DNA from: an uncultured Bacteroidales bacterium
GTDB taxonomy: Bacteria; Bacteroidota; Bacteroidia; Bacteroidales; S143-33
Assembly (NCBI GenBank): GCA_964637235.1
Contig: CAZWVR010000003.1
Coordinates: 1 to 50,340 of the forward strand
Reading direction: 5' to 3'
Length of the DNA: 50,340 bases
Shown here piece after piece: positions 4,409-32,321 of this stretch. The notes under the pieces are model-generated. The model did no database searches. It saw nothing but the letters and a program-made list of their open reading frames with translations, and was not told the origin of the DNA. Within the stretch, counting starts at the first letter, position 1; each line of letters begins with the position of its first letter. The translations under genes were made by a program, and so were the position numbers.

Positions 4409-5005
4409 ATGGAAAACTATATAAAAAACCAAGGACAAGATTTTTTTGAAACCTTTAATTCTTTAAATTTTAAGAAAAAATTACTTGAACGTCGTAAAGT
4501 TTTGTTTTGGGGACCCGTTTATGACGAAACAGCTAAGGAAATAGTTGATCAATTACTCTATCTTGAAATGGAAGCTCCCGGTAAAGAAATAACTTTATAC
4601 ATAAATAGCCCCGGTGGTTCAGTGACTGCTGGTATGGCTATTTATGATACAATGCAAATGATTAGTTCACCAGTATCAACTGTATGTGTAGGATTGGCTG
4701 CTTCTATGGGTGCTGTGCTGCTCTCCGGAGGAGAAAAAGGTAAACGCTATGTTTTTCCTAATGCAGAAATTATGATACATCAACCTGCTATATTTCAACC
4801 TATTCAAGATGAAGCGGCTAATTTGATTATTACCGCAGAGCAAATGAAAAAAACAAAGTTGCGTTTGAGTAAAATCTTAGCAGAAAATTGTAATCAGCCT
4901 TTGGAAAAAGTTCTTAAAGATACTGATAGAGACTATTGGATGAGTGCAGAAGAAGCTGTAAATTATGGTATCGTTGATAAAATAATTGATAAAATAGAAC
5001 TTTAA
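4409..5005 (+). CDS. Second, divergent ClpP-family subunit (catalytic triad retained)
   Basis: [18 protein letters not shown], Ser in GLAASMGA, His in IMIHQP, Asp in DTDRDYWM. The N-terminus and the segment after the His differ from canonical ClpP. The gap from clpP is 17 nt and the gap to clpX is 11 nt. Confidence 0.85.
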
Positions 5006-5016
5006 AGCTTTTATTT

Positions 5017-6285
5017 ATGATGCCAAAAACAGAAAATAAAGCACGACATTGCGTTATTTGCGGTCGTCCAGAGCATAAGACTAAGTTGCTTATAGAAGGT
5101 AGCTACGGATACATCTGCTCAGACTGCGTAGTCGAGATATACAATGATTTAGCTTTCCTCCGTAAACAAATTGGACGTAAAAGAATTATTAGTTATTCCA
5201 ATATACAGAGCCCAAAAGATCTGTTAAAACCCCGTGAAATAAAAAAATATTTGGATAAATTTATTATCGGACAAGAAGAAGCTAAAAAAGTTATATCTGT
5301 TGCTGTATATAACCATTATAAACGCATATTGTATAAAGATAAGCTTTTGAATAATGACGAAGATGTCGTTCTTGAAAAATCAAATATTTTATTAGTAGGT
5401 CCTACTGGAACAGGCAAAACTTTAATAGCCCGTACAATTGCTCAAATGCTTGATGTGCCTTTTGCAATAGCAGATGCTACTACCTTGACTGAAGCTGGTT
5501 ATGTTGGTGAAGACGTGGAGAATATCCTTACCAGACTTTTACAAGCTGCTAACTATGATGTAAACCGAGCTCAACGTGGTATAGTATATATTGACGAGAT
5601 TGATAAAATCTCAAGAAAATCTGAAAATCCATCTATAACAAGAGATGTATCGGGCGAAGGTGTTCAACAAGCCCTCTTGAAAATATTAGAAGGCGCTGTT
5701 GTAAATGTACCTCCACAGGGTGGTAGAAAACATCCTTATCAGGAATTTATCAAAATTGATACTACTGATATCCTTTTTATAGCCGGTGGTGCTTTTGATG
5801 GTATAGAACGAATTATTGAGAAAAGAATAAAAAGCAGTGCAATCGGTTATGATTCAGTAGCAACCCATAGACAAGTCGATAGAGACAAACTACTGCAATA
5901 TATTACTCCTCACGATGTTAGAAAATATGGTTTAATACCAGAACTCGTAGGACGTCTCCCTGTTATTGCTCATTTGAACGCTCTGGATAAAGAAGCATTG
6001 AAAAGAATTTTGTTTGAACCTCAAAATGCAATTTTACGCCAATATATTAAACTTTTTGAATTGGATGGAATTAAGCTTATCTTTGAGCAAGAGGCTATTG
6101 ATTATATCGCTCAAAAAGCTATTGATTTTAAAGTTGGGGCTCGGGGTTTACGTTCTATATGTGAATTGATAATGACAGATTTAATGTTTGATATTGATAA
6201 GTATAAAAATAAAAAACGTTTAGTTATAACTAAGTCCTTTGTTGAGGAAAAACTTAAATATAAAGATAAATTTACAGCTGCTTAA
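5017..6285 (+). CDS. clpX: ATP-dependent Clp protease ATP-binding subunit ClpX
   Basis: N-terminal zinc finger CVICG..CSDC, Walker A GPTGTGKT, Walker B VYIDEIDK, and the pore loop GYVGEDV. Confidence 0.95.
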
Positions 6286-6302
6286 ATAAAAAATCACATA
6301 AA

Positions 6303-7157
6303 ATGGCAGATATAAAATATTTAACGAAAGTTGCCACACAGGTCAGACGCGATATAATTCGTATGATAAACTTGGCAAAATCTGGACATCCGGGTGGAGC
6401 ATTGAGTGCAGCGGATTTTTTAGTTGCATTGTATTTTGAGATTATGAAGCATTCCCCGGAAAATTGGGATATGGAAGGTAAAGGGCAAGACGTTTTTTTC
6501 CTTTCTAATGGACATATTTCTGCTGCTTGGTATAGTGTATTGGCGCGTTCGGGGTATTTCCCCATAAAAGAACTTGCAACTTTCAGACGTATAAATTCCC
6601 GTTTACAAGGACATCCTGCTACTGCTGAAGGATTGCCGGGAGTAAGGGTAGCTTCCGGTTCCTTAGGACAAGGGCTTTCTGTAGCTATTGGTATGGCGCT
6701 TGCTAAAAAATTAAATAATGATAATACTTTGGTTTTCAGTTTACACGGAGATGGTGAATTGCAAGAAGGGCAAATTTGGGAAGCTGCTATGTTTGCCGGT
6801 GCTAAAAAACTTGATAATTTGATTGCTACTGTAGATTTTAATGATTGTCAAATAGAAGGACATGTTCATGAAGTTATGGACGTTCGTCCTTTGAAAGATA
6901 AATGGTGTTCTTTTGGATGGAAAGTTTTAGAAACCGAAGGTAATGATATGGAGAAAATACTCGCAACTTTAAATGAAGCTAAATCTTTGGCTTTCAATGG
7001 ATATCCAATTGTTATATTAATGAGGACTCAAATGGGTAAAGGAGTAGATTTTATGTTGGATCAGCCCGGATGGCATGGTAAAGCTCCTTCTGATGAGCAG
7101 GCAGAAAAAGCTCTTTCCCAATTAGAGGAAACCTTAGGTGATTTTCCTATTGAGTAA
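6303..7157 (+). CDS. Transketolase, N-terminal (thiamine-diphosphate-binding) subunit of a split enzyme
   Basis: GHPGGALSAAD, the GDGELQEGQIWEA TPP-binding motif, and GWHGKAP. At 284 aa it covers only the N-terminal third of a full-length transketolase. Confidence 0.9.
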   Translation: MADIKYLTKVATQVRRDIIRMINLAKSGHPGGALSAADFLVALYFEIMKHSPENWDMEGKGQDVFFLSNGHISAAWYSVLARSGYFPIKELATFRRINSRLQGHPATAEGLPGVRVASGSLGQGLSVAIGMALAKKLNNDNTLVFSLHGDGELQEGQIWEAAMFAGAKKLDNLIATVDFNDCQIEGHVHEVMDVRPLKDKWCSFGWKVLETEGNDMEKILATLNEAKSLAFNGYPIVILMRTQMGKGVDFMLDQPGWHGKAPSDEQAEKALSQLEETLGDFPIE

Positions 7158-7183
7158 TAGATAAAGCTTTTTAATAGTAAAGG

Positions 7184-7292
7184 GGGCTGTCTGACCAGTA
7201 AAAAATAAATTTTGTAAATTTTTAGAGAATAGTCGCGTTTGTTCTTTCTTTTTTCTTTTGAGTACAAATAGAGTCTTTAATAGACAGCCCGC
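7184..7292. repeat. Long-range inverted repeat (gggctgtct / agacagccc) between convergent gene ends
   Basis: The 9-bp perfect arms lie at 7184-7192 and 7282-7290, and extend to 11 positions with one mismatch. The spacer is 89 nt and AT-rich, and tttt follows the right arm. Confidence 0.7.
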
Positions 7293-7294
7293 TT

Positions 7295-8824
7295 TTAATT
7301 ATTGGACTTTTTGACTATAATTCTTTTATAAAAACGTTCTTCGGGAGAATTATCAGGCATTGTAAATTTATCTGTAAAGTAGAGTTTCCCATCAATATAT
7401 ACATTAAAGCGGTAAGTAAATCCTGAGTAAGTATAAAATTTAATTTGTCCTTGCGAGGGTTTTATAAATTGTTTTTTAGCTAAGTCCATATTTATTAGTT
7501 CAATTTTTGCTTTATTATAAATATGTCCAGAGCTGTCTAATATAGTAGCAATATTTAAGGTTTTTTGTTTTTTGCATATTTTGTTTAAATTTATTAAAAA
7601 TATATCTCCAAATCCTTTGCTATCGTATTTATATGAACAGTAAAAAGCTTTATGAGTTTTAGGTATTGGATAAAAGAATATATCATTATCTATTGAATTT
7701 ACAGGAAAATCCAAGTTTTTTGGAGTTGTCCATTTATTATTTTTGTATTGGCATTTATATATGTCATAGCCGCCGTATCCTCCTGGTTTATCTGATGAAA
7801 AAAATAGAGTTTGTTTATTAGAGATATATTCTGGGCTCTCTTCATTATATTTAGTGTTTATAGGCAGGTTTATTGGTTTTGACCATTTACCATCTGGTTT
7901 TTTATATGACATCCAGATATCTAAGCCACCCTTGCCTCCGGGACGATTGCTTGAAAAAAATATTGTATCCATATTAGGTGTAAAACATGCATGTGTTTCT
8001 CTATGTCGTGTATTTATTGGATAGGGTAGTGGTAAAGGTTCTGACCATTGTCCATTTTTATATTCTGTAATGTAAATGTCGCCTTTATTTATTCCTTTAT
8101 AGATTAGAAGTTTACTACCGCTGTCGCAAAAACCAATAGTTGCTTCATTTTCAGGTGTGTTTAATATATTTACATATTCTGGATTTGACCATTTGCCGTT
8201 ATTTAAATGGCTTATAAAAATATTTTCGTCATATTGACCATCATCTAATAATGTGGAATTTGGAGTTTTCCTACGAGAAGTAAATGCCAGAATGTTATAC
8301 TTTTCTGAAAATACTGGTGAATGTTCTGTATATGGCGAGTTTATAATCTCTCCGAGATTTTCAACACTAAAATATTTATCCAACGAATATTGTGCTAGTT
8401 TTATTTCTCTTTTTATTATTTTACGATTTTTTGGTACGGTAATTTTTTTGAGTAGGTTTTCTAAGATAATTATAGCACTATCTATTTGTCCATTAAGTCT
8501 ATATGCTCTGGCTAAATAGAATTTTATTTCATTTACTTGCAGGTTAGGATTATCCTTTTTTTTAAGAAGTTGTAAGCTATTTTTAAGATATATTATTGCG
8601 CTGTCTTGTTTACCAAAAGTATTTAGATAAGCAAAGCCCAGTTTATAATGATACACAGGATTTTTTGGGTCAAAAAGTATCATTTGTTTATACAGAGCTA
8701 TTGCACCATTGAAGTCTTCGCTAAAAGCTGGTTCAGGTAGAACATTAAATTGTTCTTTTACTTGTGGTTGTCCAAATAAGTTAATTTGGATTAGCATTAG
8801 AAGAATTAGGGATATACGTTTCAT
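7295..8824 (-). CDS. Secreted TPR plus TolB-like PD40 beta-propeller repeat protein
   Basis: Signal peptide MKRISLILLMLIQINLFGQ and N-terminal TPR-like helices. PD40-type motifs recur (FTSRRK.., FFSSNRPGGKGGLDIWMS..GKWSKPINL, FFSSDKPGGYGGYDIYKC..NKWTTPKNL). I see no OmpA-like C-terminal domain. Confidence 0.8.
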   Translation of the reverse strand: MKRISLILLMLIQINLFGQPQVKEQFNVLPEPAFSEDFNGAIALYKQMILFDPKNPVYHYKLGFAYLNTFGKQDSAIIYLKNSLQLLKKKDNPNLQVNEIKFYLARAYRLNGQIDSAIIILENLLKKITVPKNRKIIKREIKLAQYSLDKYFSVENLGEIINSPYTEHSPVFSEKYNILAFTSRRKTPNSTLLDDGQYDENIFISHLNNGKWSNPEYVNILNTPENEATIGFCDSGSKLLIYKGINKGDIYITEYKNGQWSEPLPLPYPINTRHRETHACFTPNMDTIFFSSNRPGGKGGLDIWMSYKKPDGKWSKPINLPINTKYNEESPEYISNKQTLFFSSDKPGGYGGYDIYKCQYKNNKWTTPKNLDFPVNSIDNDIFFYPIPKTHKAFYCSYKYDSKGFGDIFLINLNKICKKQKTLNIATILDSSGHIYNKAKIELINMDLAKKQFIKPSQGQIKFYTYSGFTYRFNVYIDGKLYFTDKFTMPDNSPEERFYKRIIVKKSNN

Positions 8825-9875
8825 TTCTGTATATTAAAAGTTTACTTTTTGGTAAATCTAAAATTTGTTTTGGTTTTTGTATAATTTTTGGGGCTTGTAC
8901 GCCTTTTATAAATGTTTTATAACCTATAAAAACTCTTGCTTCGTCCCAAAGATTTTTTTCAATAAAAGATGAAAGGAGTTTGCTGCCTCCTTCTACTATT
9001 ATAGACATAATCCCCAAGTTATAAATATATTTTAAAATTTCTTCTAAAAAATTTTTTTCAGATTGAATTTTGACGAAAGTGATATTTTTATTGATTTTAA
9101 AATTAATGTTTTTATTTGTGAAACATATAGTTTTAGCGCTATTGTCAAATATTTTGTAATTATTTTTATTTTTGACGAATTGTAGTTTTTTATCGATGAA
9201 CATTCTTAAAGGATTTTCGCCGTAAAATAGTCTTGCAGTTAGTTGCGGATTATCGTATTTAATAGTGTTTGTGCCGACTAATATAGCTTGTTCTTCTGTA
9301 CGCCATTTATGCACTAAAATTTTTTCATATTCACCAGTTATCCAGTTTGGGCCAATAGGAGTTTCAGGAGATCTTTCTATATCTATTAGACCGTCGAGGG
9401 TTTGCGCCCATTTTAGTATTATATATGGACGTTTTTTTTCGTGGAATGTAAAGAAGCGTTTATTTAGTTCTCGTGCTTGTTTTTCCAATATTCCGGTAAT
9501 AACTTCTATACCAGCGTTTTGTAATATTTTTATTCCTTTACCATTGACTTTTTCAGTGGTATCCTTTGTAGCTATAACTACTTTTGGGATTTTTAGTTGG
9601 GCTATTTTTTCGGCGCATGGAGGGGTTTTTCCCCAATGAGAGCATGGCTCAAGATTAACGTATAAAGTTGCTTTCCGTAATAGAGATTTATCTTTAACAG
9701 AATTTATTGCATTTATTTCTGCATGGGCTTCTCCTGCTTTTCTATGATATCCTTCTCCAAGTATTTTGTCTTTATAAACTATGACTGACCCAACAAGAGG
9801 ATTTGGATAAGTATTTCCCAAAGCGTTTTTTGCTAAATCTATTGCTCGTTGCATATAAAGTGTATGCTTATTCAT
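8781..9875 (-). CDS. ribD: Bifunctional riboflavin biosynthesis deaminase/reductase RibD
   Basis: Deaminase zinc motifs HAEINAI and PCSHWGKTPPC, with a reductase half in the C-terminus (ILKWAQTLDG, VEGGSKLLSSF). Its 3' end overlaps the downstream gene start by 44 nt. Confidence 0.93.
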   Translation of the reverse strand: MNKHTLYMQRAIDLAKNALGNTYPNPLVGSVIVYKDKILGEGYHRKAGEAHAEINAINSVKDKSLLRKATLYVNLEPCSHWGKTPPCAEKIAQLKIPKVVIATKDTTEKVNGKGIKILQNAGIEVITGILEKQARELNKRFFTFHEKKRPYIILKWAQTLDGLIDIERSPETPIGPNWITGEYEKILVHKWRTEEQAILVGTNTIKYDNPQLTARLFYGENPLRMFIDKKLQFVKNKNNYKIFDNSAKTICFTNKNINFKINKNITFVKIQSEKNFLEEILKYIYNLGIMSIIVEGGSKLLSSFIEKNLWDEARVFIGYKTFIKGVQAPKIIQKPKQILDLPKSKLLIYRNETYIPNSSNANPN

Positions 9876-24254: not shown

Positions 24255-24354
24255 GATTATGCTACTTCTGATGCTTCTGTATATACAAAATTAGAAAATC
24301 TTAATTTGCTTCAAAATTAAAACTCTTTTATCTTTGTATATAAAAAAGCTAAAT

Positions 24355-25902
24355 ATGAAAAGCTTTGTTGCTTGGCTTACAACTATTTTTCATCATTGGG
24401 GCTTTTCTTCACATGGAGTAGAAATAGCTATTACAGTTGTGTTATTTATAATTCTTCTTTTTATAGCATGGGTTGCTAATTTGTTAACAAAATATGTAAT
24501 TGTTAAGATTGTTGAAGCAATAATTAAGAAGACAAAAAATGACTATGATGATGTATTTATTCAACATAAGGCTTTTAATAATCTTTCGCATATAATTCCT
24601 GCTTTGATTATATATTTTGGAGTACCTTTTACATCTAAAAGTGAGGTTTTCATTGGTGTAATTAGGGATTTGACTTATGTATATCTTATTATTGCTATTT
24701 TATTGGTTATCAATAAGATATTAAATGCATTGAACGATATTTATGAGATTTATGCTGAGAAACGACAAATAAATGTTCATATAAAGCAGTTTATTCAAGT
24801 TGTAAAGATAATTTTTATCATAATTGCCATAATTTTAATTATTTCTGTGATCCTTCATAAAAAACCTGGTGCAATACTCGCAGGTTTAGGTGCTATGACA
24901 GCAGTACTTATGTTAATTTTTCGCGATTCTATTTTAAGTTTTGTTGCAGGTATTCAATTAACTGCATATCAGATGGTTAAAGAGGGTGATTGGATAACGG
25001 TACCTTCTCGCGGCATTGATGGGGATGTTATGGATATTAGTCTTAATACTGTTAAAATACGTAATTTTGATAAGACCATATCTACAATACCTACATATGC
25101 TTTGGTACAGGAGTCTTTTATCAATTGGAAAGGAATGGAGCAGAGTGGTGGGCGTAGAATAAAAAGGAGCATTTATATAGATATGAATTCTATTAAAATT
25201 GCTGATAATGAACTTGTTGAAAAATTACGAAAAATAAGTTTCCTTAAAGAAATTATTGAACAAGAAAATACAGAATTAAGCAATGATTTGATTAAAATTG
25301 CAGAAAATCAGGCTATTACAAATATTACTCTGTTTAGACATTATATTGAAGCTTATATTAGAAAAAATTTCCGAGTTTATAAGAAATATAAAAAGCAAAC
25401 TTTTATCAAGGATTCAGTAGTTATTGAAAGGTTTGTTATAGATGATCCTGAGGAATTTAAAGCAGACTTAGGCAAATACGCTGATAAATATACAGAAGTT
25501 CTTGATGGTAAATTGATTATCAAAGATGTAAATAAGTTTTTAATACATTTTTCTGATAAATATGTGCTTGAAAATAACTATTTATATAAAGTTAATAAGA
25601 GGCAGAAAACAATAATTGTAAAAGGTACAGAAGTTAAGCGAGATTATTATGAAAAGATTTTAATAAAGCCGGGCTTATTTTGTGATGATTTAACAATGCT
25701 TGTGAGGGAATTACCACCTTCGGAAAAAGGATTGCCCATAGAGGTTTATGTTTTTGCTGCTACTACTGATTGGGCTACTTATGAGCAAATACAGGCACGT
25801 CTGATTGAGCATTTATTAGCAGTTATACCTTTATTTGAACTTAGAGCATTTCAGCAACCTGCGGGTAGTGATTTCAATTTACTATTGAATAAGTCTAATT
25901 AA
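24355..25902 (+). CDS. MscS-family mechanosensitive channel with an enlarged C-terminal cytoplasmic region
   Basis: N-terminal TM helices and the MscS beta-domain signature GDWITVPSRGIDGDVMDISLNTVKIRNFDKTISTIPTYALVQESFINW. I chose the ATG at 24355; the track start at 24334 is a TTG. Confidence 0.85.
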   Translation: MKSFVAWLTTIFHHWGFSSHGVEIAITVVLFIILLFIAWVANLLTKYVIVKIVEAIIKKTKNDYDDVFIQHKAFNNLSHIIPALIIYFGVPFTSKSEVFIGVIRDLTYVYLIIAILLVINKILNALNDIYEIYAEKRQINVHIKQFIQVVKIIFIIIAIILIISVILHKKPGAILAGLGAMTAVLMLIFRDSILSFVAGIQLTAYQMVKEGDWITVPSRGIDGDVMDISLNTVKIRNFDKTISTIPTYALVQESFINWKGMEQSGGRRIKRSIYIDMNSIKIADNELVEKLRKISFLKEIIEQENTELSNDLIKIAENQAITNITLFRHYIEAYIRKNFRVYKKYKKQTFIKDSVVIERFVIDDPEEFKADLGKYADKYTEVLDGKLIIKDVNKFLIHFSDKYVLENNYLYKVNKRQKTIIVKGTEVKRDYYEKILIKPGLFCDDLTMLVRELPPSEKGLPIEVYVFAATTDWATYEQIQARLIEHLLAVIPLFELRAFQQPAGSDFNLLLNKSN

Positions 25903-28900
25903 ATTTTCATTCTGCTAAATATATGTTTTATAATTTCACGGTCTGTTGCTAAAAGATTGAAAAATTTAAATCGGTTTAAAGCTAAAATATTTGCTTTTTT
26001 TTCGACTATTAGTTTTTGGGTTTTTATTGGTGCATTTAATCCTCTTATAATTAGTGTATTTCGGGAGAAGTTTTTGTTTTCTGCTTTTAATTCGCCTTTT
26101 ATTATCAAAAAGATATATTCTTGTCCTTCAATAAAGAAATTTAGTGTTTCTCCTTCTGACAGTTTTATTTGTTTGCTTATTTCTGCTACATATTGTAGTG
26201 ATTTTTCTGAAACAGTGTAGAATAAATAGATTCGTTTTAGTTTTTTTATTCTATCAATGATAAGATCATCTTTATTTTTTAGTTTGTTAAGTATATGGCT
26301 TTTATTTTTTGGTATTGTAGAAAAAATTTTTTCGCACAATTGTGGAGAAATTTTATATAGAATTTTAGCTGCGGTATCAAATACAAGTGGGTCTGGGTTA
26401 TAAATTGCGATTAAAATATCGCGAATTGTACATTTTTCCAGTTTTTTGTATATAAGTTGGGCTTGTTCTCGTGTCCAAGTTTCAGGAAATTGAATTTTGG
26501 GTATCTCTTGGATATTGATTTGGGTTTTGTCGATTTGTTTTGCAAGTAGTTCCAAAGCTTTTGATATTGTCCAGTTATCTATTCGTCTATAATCACTCAT
26601 AATGATGTCAAGCAGACGTTCTTTGAAAGTAAGGTTTTCATAATGGAAATGAGGTTTAAGGCGTTTTACTTTTTGTCCAATACTGATGGGTTCAAATATA
26701 GGTAGTAAAATATGTTTAATATCGTTATCTATAAAGTTATCAATCAATTCTAAGGCAAATATAGTGTTTTCTCCAATTATATTTGTTTTTATCAGTTCAA
26801 TAAGTTCTGTTTCGTGAATAAAAGATAAGAGTTTAAATAATTGTTCAAATTTGCTAATTCTTTCTAAATCAAGTGATTGCACTAGTTTTAAAGTATTTTT
26901 TTCTCTAACAATATCTCTTATTGATAGATATAGCCACATAATATTATCTACTGTATCTTTAATTTTTTCTTTAATTATTGCGATAGTGTCTTCCTTTGCT
27001 TTAAAATCTGAGTAATAAAGCGCGTCAATTACAACTTCTTGTATATGCCTGTTTGGATAATTTATATAAGAAATTATCATTCGTTGTGCTTTGGCTGTGC
27101 CTATTTTTGCAAATACTTGGAGTATTTTTTCTTTTACGATGTTGTTTTGGGTATTTATAAAAAATTTATTCAGTATGTTTAGAATATCTTCACCAATTTC
27201 AACTAAAATACTGATTACCAGGTTATTGTATTCAGAGTCTTCTAAAAGTTTTATAATTTTTTCCCATAATTGTGGAGTTTTTCGTTTGCTTGCCAATTTA
27301 ATAGCAGCTAATTTTACTTGTCTATTATCATCTTCCAGTAGAATTTTTATGTATTTTATATCTCTGGGCTGGGGAAATTTTATGAAATATTTTATTGCTT
27401 TTATTTTATCTTTAACATTTGAGGAGTTAATTAATTGTTCTATTTCCTGATCTGAGGCAGGATTAGTTATATCTGAGAAATCGAGGTTGTAAAGTGCTTG
27501 GATTATAATTTTTTGTAGTTCTCGTTCTTTAAAACCTATTTTATCGCCAACTTGTTCAATTATTTTTACTAATTTTTGAGTGTAAGTGCTATCAATATTT
27601 AGCAGGATAATTTTTCTAAGGAGGTTATCGTCGATTTTTAGCAGAAAGCTGGCATAAACTTCCAGACTCCGGGGATTTGTTTCTGAAAGGACTAATGCAC
27701 TGAATTTATAGGTATTTTTTTCTGGGCTTAAAATATTTTTTTGGAGTATATCTAAGGCAAAAACATCTTTTTCTACGTATTGAAAATCAAAAAGGCGTTT
27801 TTCTTCTAAAATTTGGTGGATCCGATATTTGTATGTATTGTATAATTTAAAGGCGCTGAGAATAAATAAAATCATTACTGGCAGGATATAAAGTGGATAT
27901 AGTCCTAATTTAAATATTTCTCCACCTTTGACCAGTGTAAGATTTATGATAAAAAGTATGATTCCTGCCAAAGCTATTGCCAGTTGTTGAACAATTCCTA
28001 CTCGGGTTTGGATATATAATTTTTGATTATCCGGTAAAGCTTGATATAGAACATTAAAAGATGGGTCGTCTATACCTCGACGGATTATTCGTTCCAGCAT
28101 TTTATTAGCAGTAATAAATCCTAAAAAGAAAAAGCTTAATGTTCCAGCAATTTGTGCACTTATAAAAGCTAAAAGAAAAATAGTTGTTATTGTAATACCC
28201 ATAAATGTCAATCCTACTTTTATTCCCCATCGGCTGAGAATTCTACCTGAAAATACTGATATTAAAAATTCGCCTATTTTTAATCCTGCAAATACTATTG
28301 ACATAAAAGCTGCTACTGCTTGATCGTTCGGGAAAAGTCCTGTTTGTGATTTTATGGTGATAAGAAATCCATAGTCCACTAAAAAAATTACTACTGCCGA
28401 AAGTAAAGCTGTAATAAAAATGAATATTATGAACTTATTTTTTAGAAGTTTACTTTTTATAAAATTTTGTTTTACTTCATTATGGAACGATTTGGTTTCG
28501 GGGAATTTTTTATATATGTAGAAAATTAAAATAATAGCAGCTATAAGTCCTATGCTTCCTATTAGAATTAAATCATAATGATGAGGTAAAATTTTTATTA
28601 GCAAACTAATTGTAAAATAGCTGATTATAGCTGCAATAACTCCACCGAGATTTATTAAGCCGTAGAATTTTTTCACTTGCAGTAGGTTAAGAAGTCGGAC
28701 GGCTAAGCCTCCTGTTACAGTAGAAACAAAAGCAATAAAGGGCCAAGCCCATATAAAAACAAAAAAAGCTAAATATTTATATGCTAATTTTTTTTCATAG
28801 GTAGTTAAGCTTAGTAGATTTTTATCTAACAAGACCAGAAAAAAGCGAGATATAAGGGAGATGAATAACATAATCAATATGGCGATGGTAAAAAGAGTTT

Positions 28901-29153
28901 TGCTTTTATATTTTATTTGAATATTTGAATAGATTACAATGGCAATAGTGCCTACTATTCCTGAGAATATATAGGCAATAGGGAGTTCCTTATGTCCAAA
29001 GTTTGCTAAAAATTGGGAGTTGGCAGGTACAAAATAAAAGGCTATAAATAAACCTAAGAAAAATGAAAAAATAAATAGAAATTTGAGTTTATTAAAATCC
29101 TCTTTTGTTAATTTGAATTTATCTCTAAAATATTTTTCTATACTAAATTTCAT
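25899..29153 (-). CDS. 1084-aa fusion: 12-TM MFS/TLC-like transporter domain, HEAT-like helical repeats and a C-terminal cNMP-binding-like module
   Basis: About 12 hydrophobic helices in aa 22-440 (nt 27834-29090). HEAT-like repeats lie around aa 575-720 (LLEDDNRQVKLAAIKLASKRK, YPNRHIQEVVIDALYYS). The C-terminal aa 965-1084 have cNMP-domain-like spacing (LFYTVSEKSLQYVAE..LSEGETL..GQEYIFLIIKGELK) but no clear phosphate-binding cassette. Confidence 0.8.
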   Translation of the reverse strand: MKFSIEKYFRDKFKLTKEDFNKLKFLFIFSFFLGLFIAFYFVPANSQFLANFGHKELPIAYIFSGIVGTIAIVIYSNIQIKYKSKTLFTIAILIMLFISLISRFFLVLLDKNLLSLTTYEKKLAYKYLAFFVFIWAWPFIAFVSTVTGGLAVRLLNLLQVKKFYGLINLGGVIAAIISYFTISLLIKILPHHYDLILIGSIGLIAAIILIFYIYKKFPETKSFHNEVKQNFIKSKLLKNKFIIFIFITALLSAVVIFLVDYGFLITIKSQTGLFPNDQAVAAFMSIVFAGLKIGEFLISVFSGRILSRWGIKVGLTFMGITITTIFLLAFISAQIAGTLSFFFLGFITANKMLERIIRRGIDDPSFNVLYQALPDNQKLYIQTRVGIVQQLAIALAGIILFIINLTLVKGGEIFKLGLYPLYILPVMILFILSAFKLYNTYKYRIHQILEEKRLFDFQYVEKDVFALDILQKNILSPEKNTYKFSALVLSETNPRSLEVYASFLLKIDDNLLRKIILLNIDSTYTQKLVKIIEQVGDKIGFKERELQKIIIQALYNLDFSDITNPASDQEIEQLINSSNVKDKIKAIKYFIKFPQPRDIKYIKILLEDDNRQVKLAAIKLASKRKTPQLWEKIIKLLEDSEYNNLVISILVEIGEDILNILNKFFINTQNNIVKEKILQVFAKIGTAKAQRMIISYINYPNRHIQEVVIDALYYSDFKAKEDTIAIIKEKIKDTVDNIMWLYLSIRDIVREKNTLKLVQSLDLERISKFEQLFKLLSFIHETELIELIKTNIIGENTIFALELIDNFIDNDIKHILLPIFEPISIGQKVKRLKPHFHYENLTFKERLLDIIMSDYRRIDNWTISKALELLAKQIDKTQINIQEIPKIQFPETWTREQAQLIYKKLEKCTIRDILIAIYNPDPLVFDTAAKILYKISPQLCEKIFSTIPKNKSHILNKLKNKDDLIIDRIKKLKRIYLFYTVSEKSLQYVAEISKQIKLSEGETLNFFIEGQEYIFLIIKGELKAENKNFSRNTLIIRGLNAPIKTQKLIVEKKANILALNRFKFFNLLATDREIIKHIFSRMKI

Positions 29154-29162
29154 ATAAAAAAG

Positions 29163-30572
29163 CTAATCATTTTGCTGTTGCAAAATAACTAATTTTTCTT
29201 TTCTGAATTTATATATTTTGACCACAACATAAATTGTTATTAAAAATGCCAATATTGAAATTATCCAGAATACAGTGTCGGAATTTGGTGACTTGAATTT
29301 TATTGCTCTTTCAATGGCTTTATATATGTTTAAAATGCCTATCACAGTGGTTATCCATACTACAAAAGACATTAAAATATTGGAAAAATGGCTATTTATC
29401 CGTTTTTTCCCCATTATTTCAGGATTATTTATTACTATCATCAGAAATATACTGATGAAGGGTAAAATTAGTCCATTAAATGCTTGTGCCAAAATTATTG
29501 CAGGAACAGGTTTAACTTGTAAGAAACCGAATGTTAGACCGACTGCTAAAATTGTAATTGTCAATAATCTAAATCTTAATGATTGAGATCCCCATTTTTC
29601 ATTATTTTGTTGATTGAGTAAACTGCGGGTTGTAATTGCCGAAGCCAGAGGTGCAGTGATAGCTGATGTAAAACCTGCTGCAAACATTCCTATACCAAAA
29701 ATATATACAGCATATTCATTGATGTATGAGTTTAAATATAAAGCGTCTTTTATAATATCAAATGAGAAGGTTAGATTTTTTAGAGCTTCCTCAGACCAGC
29801 CAGCTGTTAGCGCACTTCCTACTGTCATTATAGACATTGATATTATGCCTCCTAATATTATTGCTACGCTTAGTCCAAAACGTACATCTCTGATATTGTG
29901 TGTTTTATCTATTATGCCTGAGCCAAGAAATATATCGTAAGGGACTACGGTAGTTCCTATAATTCCTAATATCAATATTCCGGCTCCTGGTACATCTGGA
30001 ATAGTTGGTATAAAGCTTCCTAATAGTAATGCATCAATATCAGGTTTGACAACTATGGCTGTAAATAGGAATGCAAAGCCCATTAAAAATACAAATGCAC
30101 CAAGAAATTGGGCAATTATGCGTATAGATTTTAAGTTTAAAGCAATAATGGCAAGAAGGGCAACGATAGTTACGAACCATAATTTATCTGTATGCGGGAA
30201 AATAAAATGTAAGCCTTCAATGGAACCGAGAATATTACCGGCTTCATAAGCTGCGCTACCAAGTACTATTGCCATTATTACAGAAAATATGACTGCACCT
30301 CGCGATTTTTTACCTGCAAATTGTTTTGCTATTGCTTCTCCTAAGTTCATACCAGAATATATGGTAATCCGGGCGCTAGCTTCTTGGAGTAATAGACAGG
30401 CAAAAATGGAAAATAGTATGGTCCACATTAAATCAAAATGATAATATACGCCTGCCTTGGTTAAGGTTGTCACTGTGCCAGGTCCTATAAACGCAGCTGA
30501 TACTACTGACCAAAATAGTATTACGAAAAATTTATGTCTTATTTTCTTTAATATGTTTTTAAGTTTATTCAT
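29163..30572 (-). CDS. NRAMP-fold (SLC11-like) transporter lacking the canonical metal-binding residues
   Basis: The TM1 motif is AAFIGPGTVTT where MntH has DPGN. The TM6 motif is GTTVVPYDIFLGS where MntH has GATVMPHxxxLHS. About 11-12 TM helices; 469 aa. Confidence 0.8.
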   Translation of the reverse strand: MNKLKNILKKIRHKFFVILFWSVVSAAFIGPGTVTTLTKAGVYYHFDLMWTILFSIFACLLLQEASARITIYSGMNLGEAIAKQFAGKKSRGAVIFSVIMAIVLGSAAYEAGNILGSIEGLHFIFPHTDKLWFVTIVALLAIIALNLKSIRIIAQFLGAFVFLMGFAFLFTAIVVKPDIDALLLGSFIPTIPDVPGAGILILGIIGTTVVPYDIFLGSGIIDKTHNIRDVRFGLSVAIILGGIISMSIMTVGSALTAGWSEEALKNLTFSFDIIKDALYLNSYINEYAVYIFGIGMFAAGFTSAITAPLASAITTRSLLNQQNNEKWGSQSLRFRLLTITILAVGLTFGFLQVKPVPAIILAQAFNGLILPFISIFLMIVINNPEIMGKKRINSHFSNILMSFVVWITTVIGILNIYKAIERAIKFKSPNSDTVFWIISILAFLITIYVVVKIYKFRKEKLVILQQQND

Positions 30573-31099
30573 TGAGCGTCTTTAACATATTCAAATATTT
30601 TGAGTTTTTCTCTCATCTGTTCAATAACTTCCTCTATATTAAGATTTTGCTGTTTTTGTAGTAAGTGTTGCAATGCTTCAATAGGTTCAAAATTGGAGGT
30701 AAAATCTCCGTCTAATATTTTGGCAGGACCATTTTTCCTTCGGTAATAAAAAGCGTACTTGGCTTTGTCGGGTTCAAAGCTATATTTCCCTTTTTCTCTT
30801 AATTGCCAGATGGGTGTTATATCAAGGTCATAACCTTTGGGAAATTGTCCCGATAGGGCTTCTAAAAAGTTTATTCTTTCCAGTGCATAAAAGCTAACTA
30901 TATAAACTTCTCCTATTGTAGCAGCATTTTTGTATCTTTTATCTATGTAAACACTTCCTTGTTCAGATTTCATCAGTTGCCCATTAGTATAGTAGTACCC
31001 TTTGAATTCTGCTCCTTTGATGTAAAAATGAAATTTTTGTCCTTGCCTAAGGGTACCATATACAAATAATCTAATTTTGGGTTTATCTAATCCGTTCAT
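30569..31099 (-). CDS. Gamma-glutamylcyclotransferase-fold (AIG2/GGACT-like) protein with a helical C-terminal extension
   Basis: N-terminal LFVYGTLRQG signature, then GEVYIV..LERINFLEAL resembling the G-x-ly..lD..E region. The last ~50 aa have no match I recognise. Confidence 0.7.
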   Translation of the reverse strand: MNGLDKPKIRLFVYGTLRQGQKFHFYIKGAEFKGYYYTNGQLMKSEQGSVYIDKRYKNAATIGEVYIVSFYALERINFLEALSGQFPKGYDLDITPIWQLREKGKYSFEPDKAKYAFYYRRKNGPAKILDGDFTSNFEPIEALQHLLQKQQNLNIEEVIEQMREKLKIFEYVKDAQ

Positions 31100-31232
31100 A
31101 ATTATTTTTGTATTTCTAAAACAAATTCTTTACCAATTTTTGAGTTTTTTTATTGCGTTTTTTAGATTTAAAAAAATTGCAAATTTGCACAAAATTTATA
31201 AAAAAGTTGGTTTATACCAAAATTATTTTTCA

Positions 31233-32321
31233 ATGCGAATACTTATTGCTTTTGATAAGTTCAAATATACTTTTTCTGCGGAGGAAATTACACATATAGT
31301 CGCTCAGTTGTTAGATTCAGATAAATACACTATTTGGGAAGTGCCACTTTCTGATGGAGGTGAAGGATTTTTAGATGTCATAAAAAGATATGTGTCTGCT
31401 CAATTTATTGAGTTAAAAACATATAATGCCATTTTAGAAGTAATTACTGCCCCTGTTTTAGTTGCTGGGAGGGTTGCGTTTATAGAATGTGCTAACACTT
31501 GTGGTATTGCCAATCTACCTGCTGATAAAAGAAATCCACTTTTTACTACAAGTTTTGGTCTTGGAATTCAAATAAAAAAATTGTTAGAGTCTGAGGGAGT
31601 TTCAGAATTTTATATTGGTTTAGGAGGGAGTGCTACTCATGATGTTGGTATTGGAATGGCTGCGGCTTTGGGGTATAGATTTATAGATGTTTATAAGCGT
31701 GAATTAAAACCCATAGGCAAAAATCTTATTGAAATAAATCATATTGTTTTTCCGAAGTCTTTTCCATCAGGGGTAAAGTTTACAGGTGTGTGCGATGTTA
31801 GAAATCCTTTATTGGGAGAAAATGGGGCTGCATATACCTTTGCACAGCAAAAAGGAGCACGGGAATATGAAATTCAGTTATTGGAGAAGGGTACAAAAAA
31901 TATTAGTGAAAAGATTAGGCAATATTTAAAACAGAATATTGGATATGGAGCTTTTGAAGGCGCAGCTGGCGGATTGGGTGCTGGTATTAAAGCCTTTTTG
32001 AGGGGTAAACTTATTTCAGGAGCTCAATTTGTTTTTAAACTTGCTGATATTGAGCATAAAATAAAAAATGCTGATGTTATTATTACTGGCGAGGGTCGTC
32101 TGGATAAAACATCTTTTAAAGGTAAACTTACCGGAGAGATTTATAAACTTGCTGTTAAATATCATAAAAAGCTTATAGTTATTTGTGGTTCATTGTATGG
32201 GGATATAGATTTACCAAATTTGGAGATTTATCCTCTGTTTTACGAAAAAGTGCCCATTTCAATAGCTAAAAAATTAACTCCCCAGAGAATGAAACTTGTT
32301 ATAAATAATATTTTTAAGTAA
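31233..32321 (+). CDS. glxK: Glycerate kinase
   Basis: MRILIAFDKFKYTFSAEE and PLSDGGEGF at the N-terminus, with ITGEGRLDKTSFKGK in the C-terminal half. The track start at 31077 is a TTG giving 52 junk residues that overlap the divergent gene. Confidence 0.88.
   Translation: MRILIAFDKFKYTFSAEEITHIVAQLLDSDKYTIWEVPLSDGGEGFLDVIKRYVSAQFIELKTYNAILEVITAPVLVAGRVAFIECANTCGIANLPADKRNPLFTTSFGLGIQIKKLLESEGVSEFYIGLGGSATHDVGIGMAAALGYRFIDVYKRELKPIGKNLIEINHIVFPKSFPSGVKFTGVCDVRNPLLGENGAAYTFAQQKGAREYEIQLLEKGTKNISEKIRQYLKQNIGYGAFEGAAGGLGAGIKAFLRGKLISGAQFVFKLADIEHKIKNADVIITGEGRLDKTSFKGKLTGEIYKLAVKYHKKLIVICGSLYGDIDLPNLEIYPLFYEKVPISIAKKLTPQRMKLVINNIFK

Follow-up and report, generated by a model that had tools for sequence, protein, structure and literature searches.

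An NTT-HEAT-cNBD-type fusion protein of an uncultured Bacteroidales bacterium: family membership, replaced nucleotide-exchange residues and conserved gene partners

Introduction

Fusions of a nucleotide transporter (NTT) with HEAT repeats, with or without a C-terminal cyclic nucleotide-binding domain (cNBD), were described in 2017 and named NTT-HEAT and NTT-HEAT-cNBD (Major, Embley & Williams, Genome Biol Evol, PMC5381601). They were described as one bacterial clade that is broadly distributed and whose function is unknown, and it was speculated that the cNBD may tune ATP uptake via cyclic AMP (cAMP) (PMC5381601). No later functional study of the NTT-HEAT(-cNBD) family was found in the literature searched, where cAMP-tuned ATP uptake is the sole published functional idea. 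Here we analyze a gene for a 1084-residue protein located in a 50,340 nt stretch (the window) of contig CAZWVR010000003.1, from an uncultured Bacteroidales bacterium (assembly GCA_964637235.1), which we assign with high confidence to the NTT-HEAT-cNBD fusion family as an ordinary, divergent Bacteroidales member. Its architecture is already known; what is new is the replacement of NTT1 residues, the shortening of the phosphate-binding cassette and the conserved gene partners. An initial annotation, made from the sequence alone, had called the protein a giant fusion, which overstates the case because the three-part architecture was named in 2017 and the family is very large; its remark that TLC-HEAT fusions are annotated but uncharacterized agrees with PMC5381601.

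The closest described relatives of the membrane part are the NTT1 proteins of the TLC family (PF03219; structures 9j3j, 9j3l and 9j3n), which have a 12-helix major facilitator superfamily (MFS) fold and are the best match to aa 17–455 both by sequence profile and by structure. Mutagenesis of the Arabidopsis plastid ATP/ADP translocator, AtNTT1, showed that K155 is needed for binding of ADP and ATP, K527 for binding of ATP and E245 for translocation (PMC3306366); E385 completes the set of four conserved charged residues, and was examined in the earlier study to which that article refers. The window protein shares with NTT1 the loop motifs AK[KR]FY and [DE]Pxxxxx[YF], but it lacks Lys at the positions of K155 and K527 and Glu at that of E245, and contains ca. 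630 extra cytoplasmic residues.

For the C-terminal part, the closest functional analogy is with the cyclic-nucleotide-binding (CNB) homology domains of KCNH channels (hERG/EAG/ELK; 5va1, 6syg and 4llo are among the top Foldseek matches), which retain the CNB fold without the residues that contact the cyclic nucleotide and are likewise a C-terminal regulatory appendage on a membrane transport protein. The likeness is of fold alone: the cassette is only substituted in KCNH whereas it is shortened in the window protein, and the "intrinsic ligand" strand that follows helix C in KCNH has no counterpart here, because the protein ends at aa 1084, three residues past helix C (aa 1072–1081). The sperm Na+/H+ exchanger SLC9C1, which binds cAMP and was in the Foldseek list of the whole model, is also a secondary carrier whose long, helical cytoplasmic part terminates in a CNB fold, but its carrier fold is unrelated (template modeling (TM) score of 0.08–0.09) and the comparison is an analogy only.

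Results

The window protein is a divergent member of a very large family

We aligned 44 sequences of the family (A1), searched all the PDB sequences with the resulting profile and gave the alignment to AlphaFold2 (AF2) as input. A HMMER search with A1 of 1.84 billion cluster representatives, with clusters defined at 50 % identity, retrieved 2,778 clusters with E<=1e-30, a number that rose to 14,778 with E<=1e-3; most of the best ones had ca. 1050 aa, and their matches extended over the carrier, HEAT and helical domains. Sampled distant members exceeded the Pfam thresholds for TLC, HEAT_2 and cNMP_binding; for instance, P0200 scored 27.3, 101.9 and 76.5 bits, respectively, and matched the A1 profile with an E value of 4e-182. 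This unbroken profile similarity to Pfam-positive members indicates that the window protein is a divergent Bacteroidales branch of the NTT-HEAT-cNBD family. The order of the modules and the length (ca. 1000–1100 aa) are common to both, and the carrier, HEAT and cNBD-homologous parts are all present in the window protein. Unlike the published fusions, however, its Bacteroidales subfamily is too divergent for the Pfam TLC and cNMP_binding models, and its CNB-like cassette is shortened and devoid of Glu and Arg. Two of the genera to which loci of the family are assigned by name, Draconibacterium and Paludibacter, were not found in the sequence file of PMC5381601, and the Bacteroidetes entries inspected in that file are flavobacterial and labeled as HEAT only.

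Full-length relatives were abundant. Among 5.8 billion proteins searched there were more than 70 of them, with 1075–1127 aa, 35–67 % identity and 97–100 % coverage. Their assemblies, of Bacteroidales, Bacteroidota and "Chlorobi"-labeled metagenome-assembled genomes, are independent and stem from various studies and habitats. In species-representative genomes, 124 matching stretches were detected, of which the best 80 loci were retained, and the fusion family was found in 34 of the 121 genomes sampled across the order, with one to four copies each. The genome containing the window (2.67 Mb, 87 % complete) has a second full-length copy on another contig, with 40 % identity. The window gene itself is a single open reading frame that starts with ATG and runs uninterrupted for 1084 codons, and the G+C content is ca. 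30 % across the whole window, with no break in composition at this gene.

The membrane domain has the fold of an NTT-type carrier

The AF2 model of the whole chain, built on A1, had a mean predicted local distance difference test (pLDDT) value of 86.4 and a predicted TM score (pTM) of 0.76, with 12 membrane helices at aa 17–455, an all-helical region spanning aa 466–992 and a beta roll at aa 993–1060 followed by two helices. A Kyte-Doolittle scan located 11–12 hydrophobic segments within aa 20–439. The A1 profile matched AtNTT1 (9j3j) with an E value of 2.2e-12 over positions 71–427, and the first match of the whole model in a Foldseek search against the PDB was the ATP-bound form of the same protein (9j3l, TM score of 0.74 on the target), followed by its ADP/Pi-bound form, by NTT1 from Chlamydia pneumoniae (9j3n) and then by generic MFS carriers. 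Additionally, BLASTP aligned P0001 with potato NTT1 (E 9e-6). These results substantiate the ca. 12 hydrophobic helices with an MFS/ATP:ADP-translocase-like layout that the initial annotation had proposed for aa 22–440, and provide the membrane domain with a match among transporter families. They also bear out the basic amphipathic segment suggested for the N-terminus, modeled as a helix at aa 2–13 and with eight Lys or Arg among the first 25 residues, which is presumably cytoplasmic.

Pfam alone gave a partial picture. Among the models that the initial annotation had pointed to, HEAT_2 scored above its cut-off, whereas neither TLC (PF03219) nor cNMP_binding (PF00027) matched the window protein at E<=1 and MFS_1 remained below threshold; PF03219 matched only one of the 44 aligned relatives. 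Because the single sequence falls below both models, the TLC and cNMP assignments rest on profiles and on predicted folds, two lines that agree with each other for the carrier and for the CNB-like domain.

Three of the four charged residues for nucleotide exchange are replaced

The residues of AtNTT1 were located in the window protein, after matching E245, E385 and K527 to the chain numbering of the PDB entry (an offset of 84), in three alignments: the HMMER alignment, a MAFFT alignment with fragments of AtNTT1 and CpNTT1, and another built with MAFFT that included full-length potato NTT1, Simkania NTT2 and the NTT-HEAT sequences of the 2017 supplement. All of them agreed in that only one of the four charged residues for nucleotide binding or exchange is retained, E385, which corresponds to D260, a position that is acidic and mostly retained. 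K155 corresponds to Y61, with aromatic or aliphatic residues in the aligned bacterial fusion proteins; E245 to W137/P138, P138 being invariant in A1; and K527 to I393/A394, beside a deletion of four residues ("KSGG"). The same pattern of substitutions occurs in the published NTT-HEAT sequences from Aquimarina, Kordia, Pleurocapsa and Oscillochloris, which also share with the window protein the deletion at K527 and full-length profile continuity, whereas the sequence from an oomycete (Aphanomyces) deviates in part, with Glu at the position of E245 and Arg at that of K527. Loop motifs typical of NTT/MFS carriers are retained, including K161 within QVKKFYG and the motif DDPxFNVLYQ, and the positions of the central cavity are conserved although three of the four exchange residues are replaced. 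From these alignments of low identity we infer a working carrier-type domain, whose cavity would not be built for a nucleoside triphosphate.

The C-terminal domain has a CNB fold with a shortened cassette

The initial annotation recognized in the last ca. 120 aa the beta-roll spacing of a cNMP-binding domain, and profiles and predicted structure alike point to a CNB fold. The A1 profile matched the CNB domains of cGMP-dependent kinase (PKG) with an E value of 4.7e-5 over positions 939–1019, and a family profile restricted to aa 925–1084 (A2) matched CNB-B of PKG with an E value of 6e-6. The AF2 model of aa 925–1084 built on A2 had a pLDDT of 90.2, and all of its 50 top Foldseek matches were CNB or CNB-homology domains (E ca. 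1e-7, TM scores of up to 0.64), including those of hERG/EAG channels, MlotiK1, PKA-R, PKG, and CNG and HCN channels. When the corresponding C-terminal parts of two relatives, P0187 and P0200, were compared with PF00027, they scored 55–77 bits.

The Gly-Glu…Arg-Ser/Thr-Ala cassette, which the initial annotation could not find, is indeed missing. At its position the window protein has G1038-L-N-A-P-I-K-T-Q1046, without Glu or the conserved Arg and 3–4 residues shorter than in the canonical relative P0200 (GEMSLLDSEPRSA), where the aligned stretch reads GEMSLLDSEP-RSA; in the AF2 model the cassette helix is absent at this stretch. G1038 and N1040 are conserved in the Bacteroidales subfamily, in which the stretch is likewise 3–4 residues short and lacks Glu and a conserved basic residue. 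Among 212 full-length relatives compared, the canonical GE…R[ST]A pattern is retained in just three distant members (P0094, P0141 and P0200).

The genome containing the window encodes two class III cyclase homologs (C51 and C22), and PF00027 detected in it three other CNB proteins, of the Crp/Fnr type and ca. 240 aa (C77:2370–2630, C125:3303–3566 and C76:4515–4772), but neither copy of the fusion. The GE…R[ST]A pattern was tried on these three proteins as a control for a canonical CNB domain and had to be discarded, as none of them matched it. Loss of the strict motif alone is thus common in Crp/Fnr-type domains and no proof that a ligand is not bound; a more specific feature is that the cassette is shortened. 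The CNB fold of the window protein may bind other ligands or none, and by analogy with the KCNH domains it could have a regulatory or docking role without any ligand.

HEAT repeats and a family-specific helical domain link both ends

The helical linker that follows the last membrane helix (aa 456–561) had no sequence match in Pfam or in the PDB. The HEAT-type repeats placed by the initial annotation at aa ca. 575–720 are confirmed: HEAT_2 scored 29.4 bits on aa 572–641, marginally over its cut-off of 27.7, and was matched by 41 of the 44 family members, and the A1 profile matched artificial alphaRep/PBS-HEAT proteins with an E value of 1.6e-17 over positions 562–699. In NCBIfam there was only a weak match, to NblB (HEAT). 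The further helical repeats predicted to follow appear in the AF2 model as part of the all-helical region. This region includes aa 715–960, the best conserved cytoplasmic part of the fusion protein, with residues L776, N791, E802 and K813 (motif NIIGENTIFALELIDNF) invariant even in relatives with 19–23 % identity. A PDB profile search with aa 455–960 produced matches confined to the HEAT part, leaving aa 715–960 without a recognized relative; it is a family-specific conserved helical domain.

Table 1. Coordinates in the window of the fusion gene, its parts and its neighbors.
Feature	Position	Strand	Evidence
Whole gene, NTT-HEAT-CNB-homology fusion, 1084 aa plus stop	25899..29153	(-)	Single open reading frame, full-length homologs
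aa 1–16, basic amphipathic N-terminal helix	29106..29153	(-)	Sequence; AF2 helix aa 2–13
aa 17–455, 12-helix MFS-fold carrier of NTT/TLC type	27789..29105	(-)	Family profile, Foldseek, hydropathy
aa 456–561, linker of helices and start of the helical repeats, following the last membrane helix	27471..27788	(-)	AF2
aa 562–714, HEAT-like repeats of PBS-lyase/alphaRep type	27012..27470	(-)	Pfam, PDB profile
aa 715–960, conserved all-helical domain	26274..27011	(-)	Alignments A1 and A3; AF2
aa 961–1084, cyclic-nucleotide-binding homology domain, consisting of helix A, a beta roll of eight strands and helices B and C	25902..26273	(-)	Profile, AF2, Foldseek
aa 1038–1046 (GLNAPIKTQ), counterpart of the phosphate-binding cassette, shortened and degenerate	26016..26042	(-)	Alignments, AF2
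Nramp-fold carrier, upstream partner, 9 nt away	29163..30572	(-)	Pfam Nramp, E 1.3e-63
GGACT/AIG2-like cyclotransferase-fold protein, first gene of the apparent operon	30569..31099	(-)	Pfam GGACT, E 1.6e-7
MscS-like gene, 522 aa, converging on the 3′ end of the fusion gene	24334–25902	(+)	–

The fusion gene has two recurring sets of partners

The fusion gene is preceded by genes for a GGACT-like enzyme and an Nramp-like carrier (Table 1), the former overlapping the start of the latter by 4 nt, and a glycerate kinase gene diverges upstream of this three-gene unit. The Nramp-like protein lacks the canonical metal-coordinating residues, because the metal-site motifs DPGN and MPH are replaced by GPGT and VPY. 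At the other end, the last 4 nt of the MscS-like gene overlap the 3′ end of the fusion gene; the stop codons of both genes overlap, which leaves no space for a terminator between them.

A tblastn comparison of the window neighbors with all the fetched loci revealed that the Nramp-like gene is directly upstream of the fusion gene in every locus of the window clade with enough flanking sequence. In the closest relative, the truncated upstream gene specifies a product 74 % identical to the Nramp-like protein of the window, and in L001 the Nramp-like gene (4595–6001) and the fusion gene (6001–9279) share one base. Mapped on the family tree, linkage to Nramp required 6 changes, versus 21.6 expected from shuffled labels. 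The linkage occurs in several clades and is absent from a large derived clade of 43 loci, which holds second copies from genomes that also carry a linked copy.

Clustering of all the neighbors of 85 loci identified, upstream and on the same strand, the Nramp-like carrier in 25 of the 85 loci and a dCache_2 membrane sensor, with or without GAF and lacking an output domain, in 18 of the 72 loci with enough flank; the GGACT-like enzyme was upstream in 15 loci. Downstream of the fusion gene were a REC-LytTR regulator, on the same strand in 11 of the 67 loci with enough flank, and an M20 peptidase (10 loci). In a paralog clade, exemplified by L003:4322–9952, the fusion gene lies between genes for a dCache_2-GAF protein and a REC-LytTR regulator, all on the same strand, and this arrangement is repeated in L029, L034, L046, L048, L049, L052, L055, L056 and L065, often followed by genes for the M20 peptidase and a cytidine deaminase; it looks like a conserved signaling cassette. 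There are thus two recurring sets of partners, one metabolic or transport-related and the other of signaling, which are bridged by a few loci: in L023:2898–9231 and L073:2785–9150, genes for dCache_2, the Nramp-like carrier and the fusion protein follow each other on one strand. None of these partners of the window subfamily (Nramp-like, GGACT-like) or of the paralog clade (dCache, LytTR) is described in the 2017 paper.

The second copy in the genome containing the window (C30:13510–16728, locus L088:1498–4746; 1082 aa) adjoins neither set of partners and is flanked by genes for an Exo_endo_phos_3 (endonuclease/phosphatase-family) protein and a UvrD-like helicase. The dCache/HAMP/GAF family is represented in this genome by at least 14 tblastn matches on 14 contigs, mostly to the C-terminal half (the best being C7:23104–24633), none of which adjoins either NTT-HEAT copy.

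Discussion

We consider somewhat better than even the chances that the window protein, a genuine member of the NTT-HEAT-cNBD family, acts as a carrier under regulation, or as a transceptor, for a solute other than ATP/ADP, with a HEAT/CNB-like module that is blind to cyclic nucleotides; in this mechanism we have moderate to low confidence. The polypeptide would proceed from a cytoplasmic basic helix to a 12-helix carrier of NTT/TLC lineage, and from there to a cytoplasmic HEAT/ARM-like solenoid, a helical domain and a CNB-fold end. The membrane domain would operate as a secondary carrier, or as a carrier-derived receptor, for a solute other than ATP/ADP, whereas the solenoid and the CNB-homology domain would constitute a built-in regulatory or docking module that reads or controls the conformation of the carrier. 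This putative module would not respond to cAMP or cGMP, because the phosphate-binding cassette is lost. In the orthologous group of the window, the fusion protein would work together with the GGACT-like enzyme and the Nramp-fold carrier, which would be co-transcribed from upstream, probably to take up or to sense a small organic solute. The initial annotation had envisaged a transporter or transceptor that senses a ligand other than cAMP/cGMP; the loss of the cassette and of three of the four exchange residues is compatible with this idea, although the CNB-like domain may bind no ligand at all.

Several points weigh against the proposal of a regulated carrier for a non-ATP/ADP solute. The mapping of the exchange residues depends on alignments with ca. 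15–25 % identity and on mutagenesis of a single plant NTT. Other members of the NTT family transport NAD+ or further nucleotides using a set of residues that differs in part, so the substrate could still be nucleotide-like. The neighborhood varies by clade, and the link to Nramp and GGACT may therefore not represent the whole family. Finally, the mechanism is an inference at every step.

Alternatively, the protein might be a receptor or anchor that does not transport, in which the HEAT/CNB-like scaffold links LytTR-type response regulators with both the dCache sensors and the Nramp-fold carrier. We regard this as unlikely, while giving it more credit than any other alternative. In its favor are the output-less dCache_2 sensors and REC-LytTR regulators that respectively precede and follow the fusion gene in the paralog clade, the consecutive dCache, Nramp-like and fusion genes of L023 and L073, and the general role of HEAT solenoids as protein-docking modules. 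However, the well conserved MFS core, including K161 and the two loop motifs cited above, fits with continued conformational cycling; the window copy adjoins neither a dCache nor a LytTR gene; and there is no histidine kinase in the conserved set of neighbors. A broader proposal, to which we assign a rather small probability, is that NTT-HEAT-CNB-like proteins in general are transceptors instead of nucleotide carriers, and relay their state through the scaffold and a ligand-blind CNB-like domain to partners that in Bacteroidales would be the Nramp-fold carrier, output-less dCache proteins and LytTR regulators. If true, this would amount to a previously unrecognized nutrient-sensing pathway common to thousands of free-living bacteria.

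It is still less probable that the window protein is an antiporter of nucleotides (ATP:ADP or other) tuned by cAMP or cGMP at its C-terminus, or an exporter of ATP to the periplasm. Homology and fold match to NTT1 would agree with it, as would the name "ATP:ADP antiporter, AAA family" given to two homologs by JGI, the cAMP-gating idea of PMC5381601, the two class III cyclase homologs of the genome and the canonical cassette retained by P0094, P0141 and P0200. Against it, both nucleotide-binding lysines are among the three AtNTT1 residues replaced, the cassette is shortened and has neither Glu nor Arg, PF03219 and PF00027 fail on the window protein at E<=1, and no genes for exported kinases or phosphatases were seen near the window gene.

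These considerations extend beyond the window, since the family is very large and, although catalogued in 2017, still has no assigned function. Its members are labeled in databases as "ATP:ADP antiporter" or "MFS transporter". Our analysis argues against the antiporter label: the bacterial members compared have neither of the NTT1 lysines that bind nucleotide, and most close relatives lack the cyclic-nucleotide cassette. The conserved Bacteroidales neighbors (the Nramp-like carrier, the GGACT-like enzyme, dCache sensors and LytTR regulators) offer concrete candidate partners.

The initial annotation also contemplated a fusion artefact of assembly. Such an artefact, or one of gene calling, in which a transporter gene is joined to unrelated downstream genes, can be dismissed, because the uninterrupted full-length architecture is conserved in more than 70 independent assemblies, in 34 of the 121 genomes of the order and in the second copy of the same genome, and the model of the whole chain is confident.

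Many genomes contain two to four copies of the family. Two copies ca. 10–12 kb apart occur on one contig in JAIFMG010000047.1 (L018 and L070) and likewise in G037 (C232:16766–20041 and 28631–31864). One or two in-frame TAA stops interrupt otherwise full-length matches in G008 (C22:13519–16764), G054 (C163:4221–6803) and G056 (C12:43910–45232), which could be pseudogenes or result from sequencing errors.

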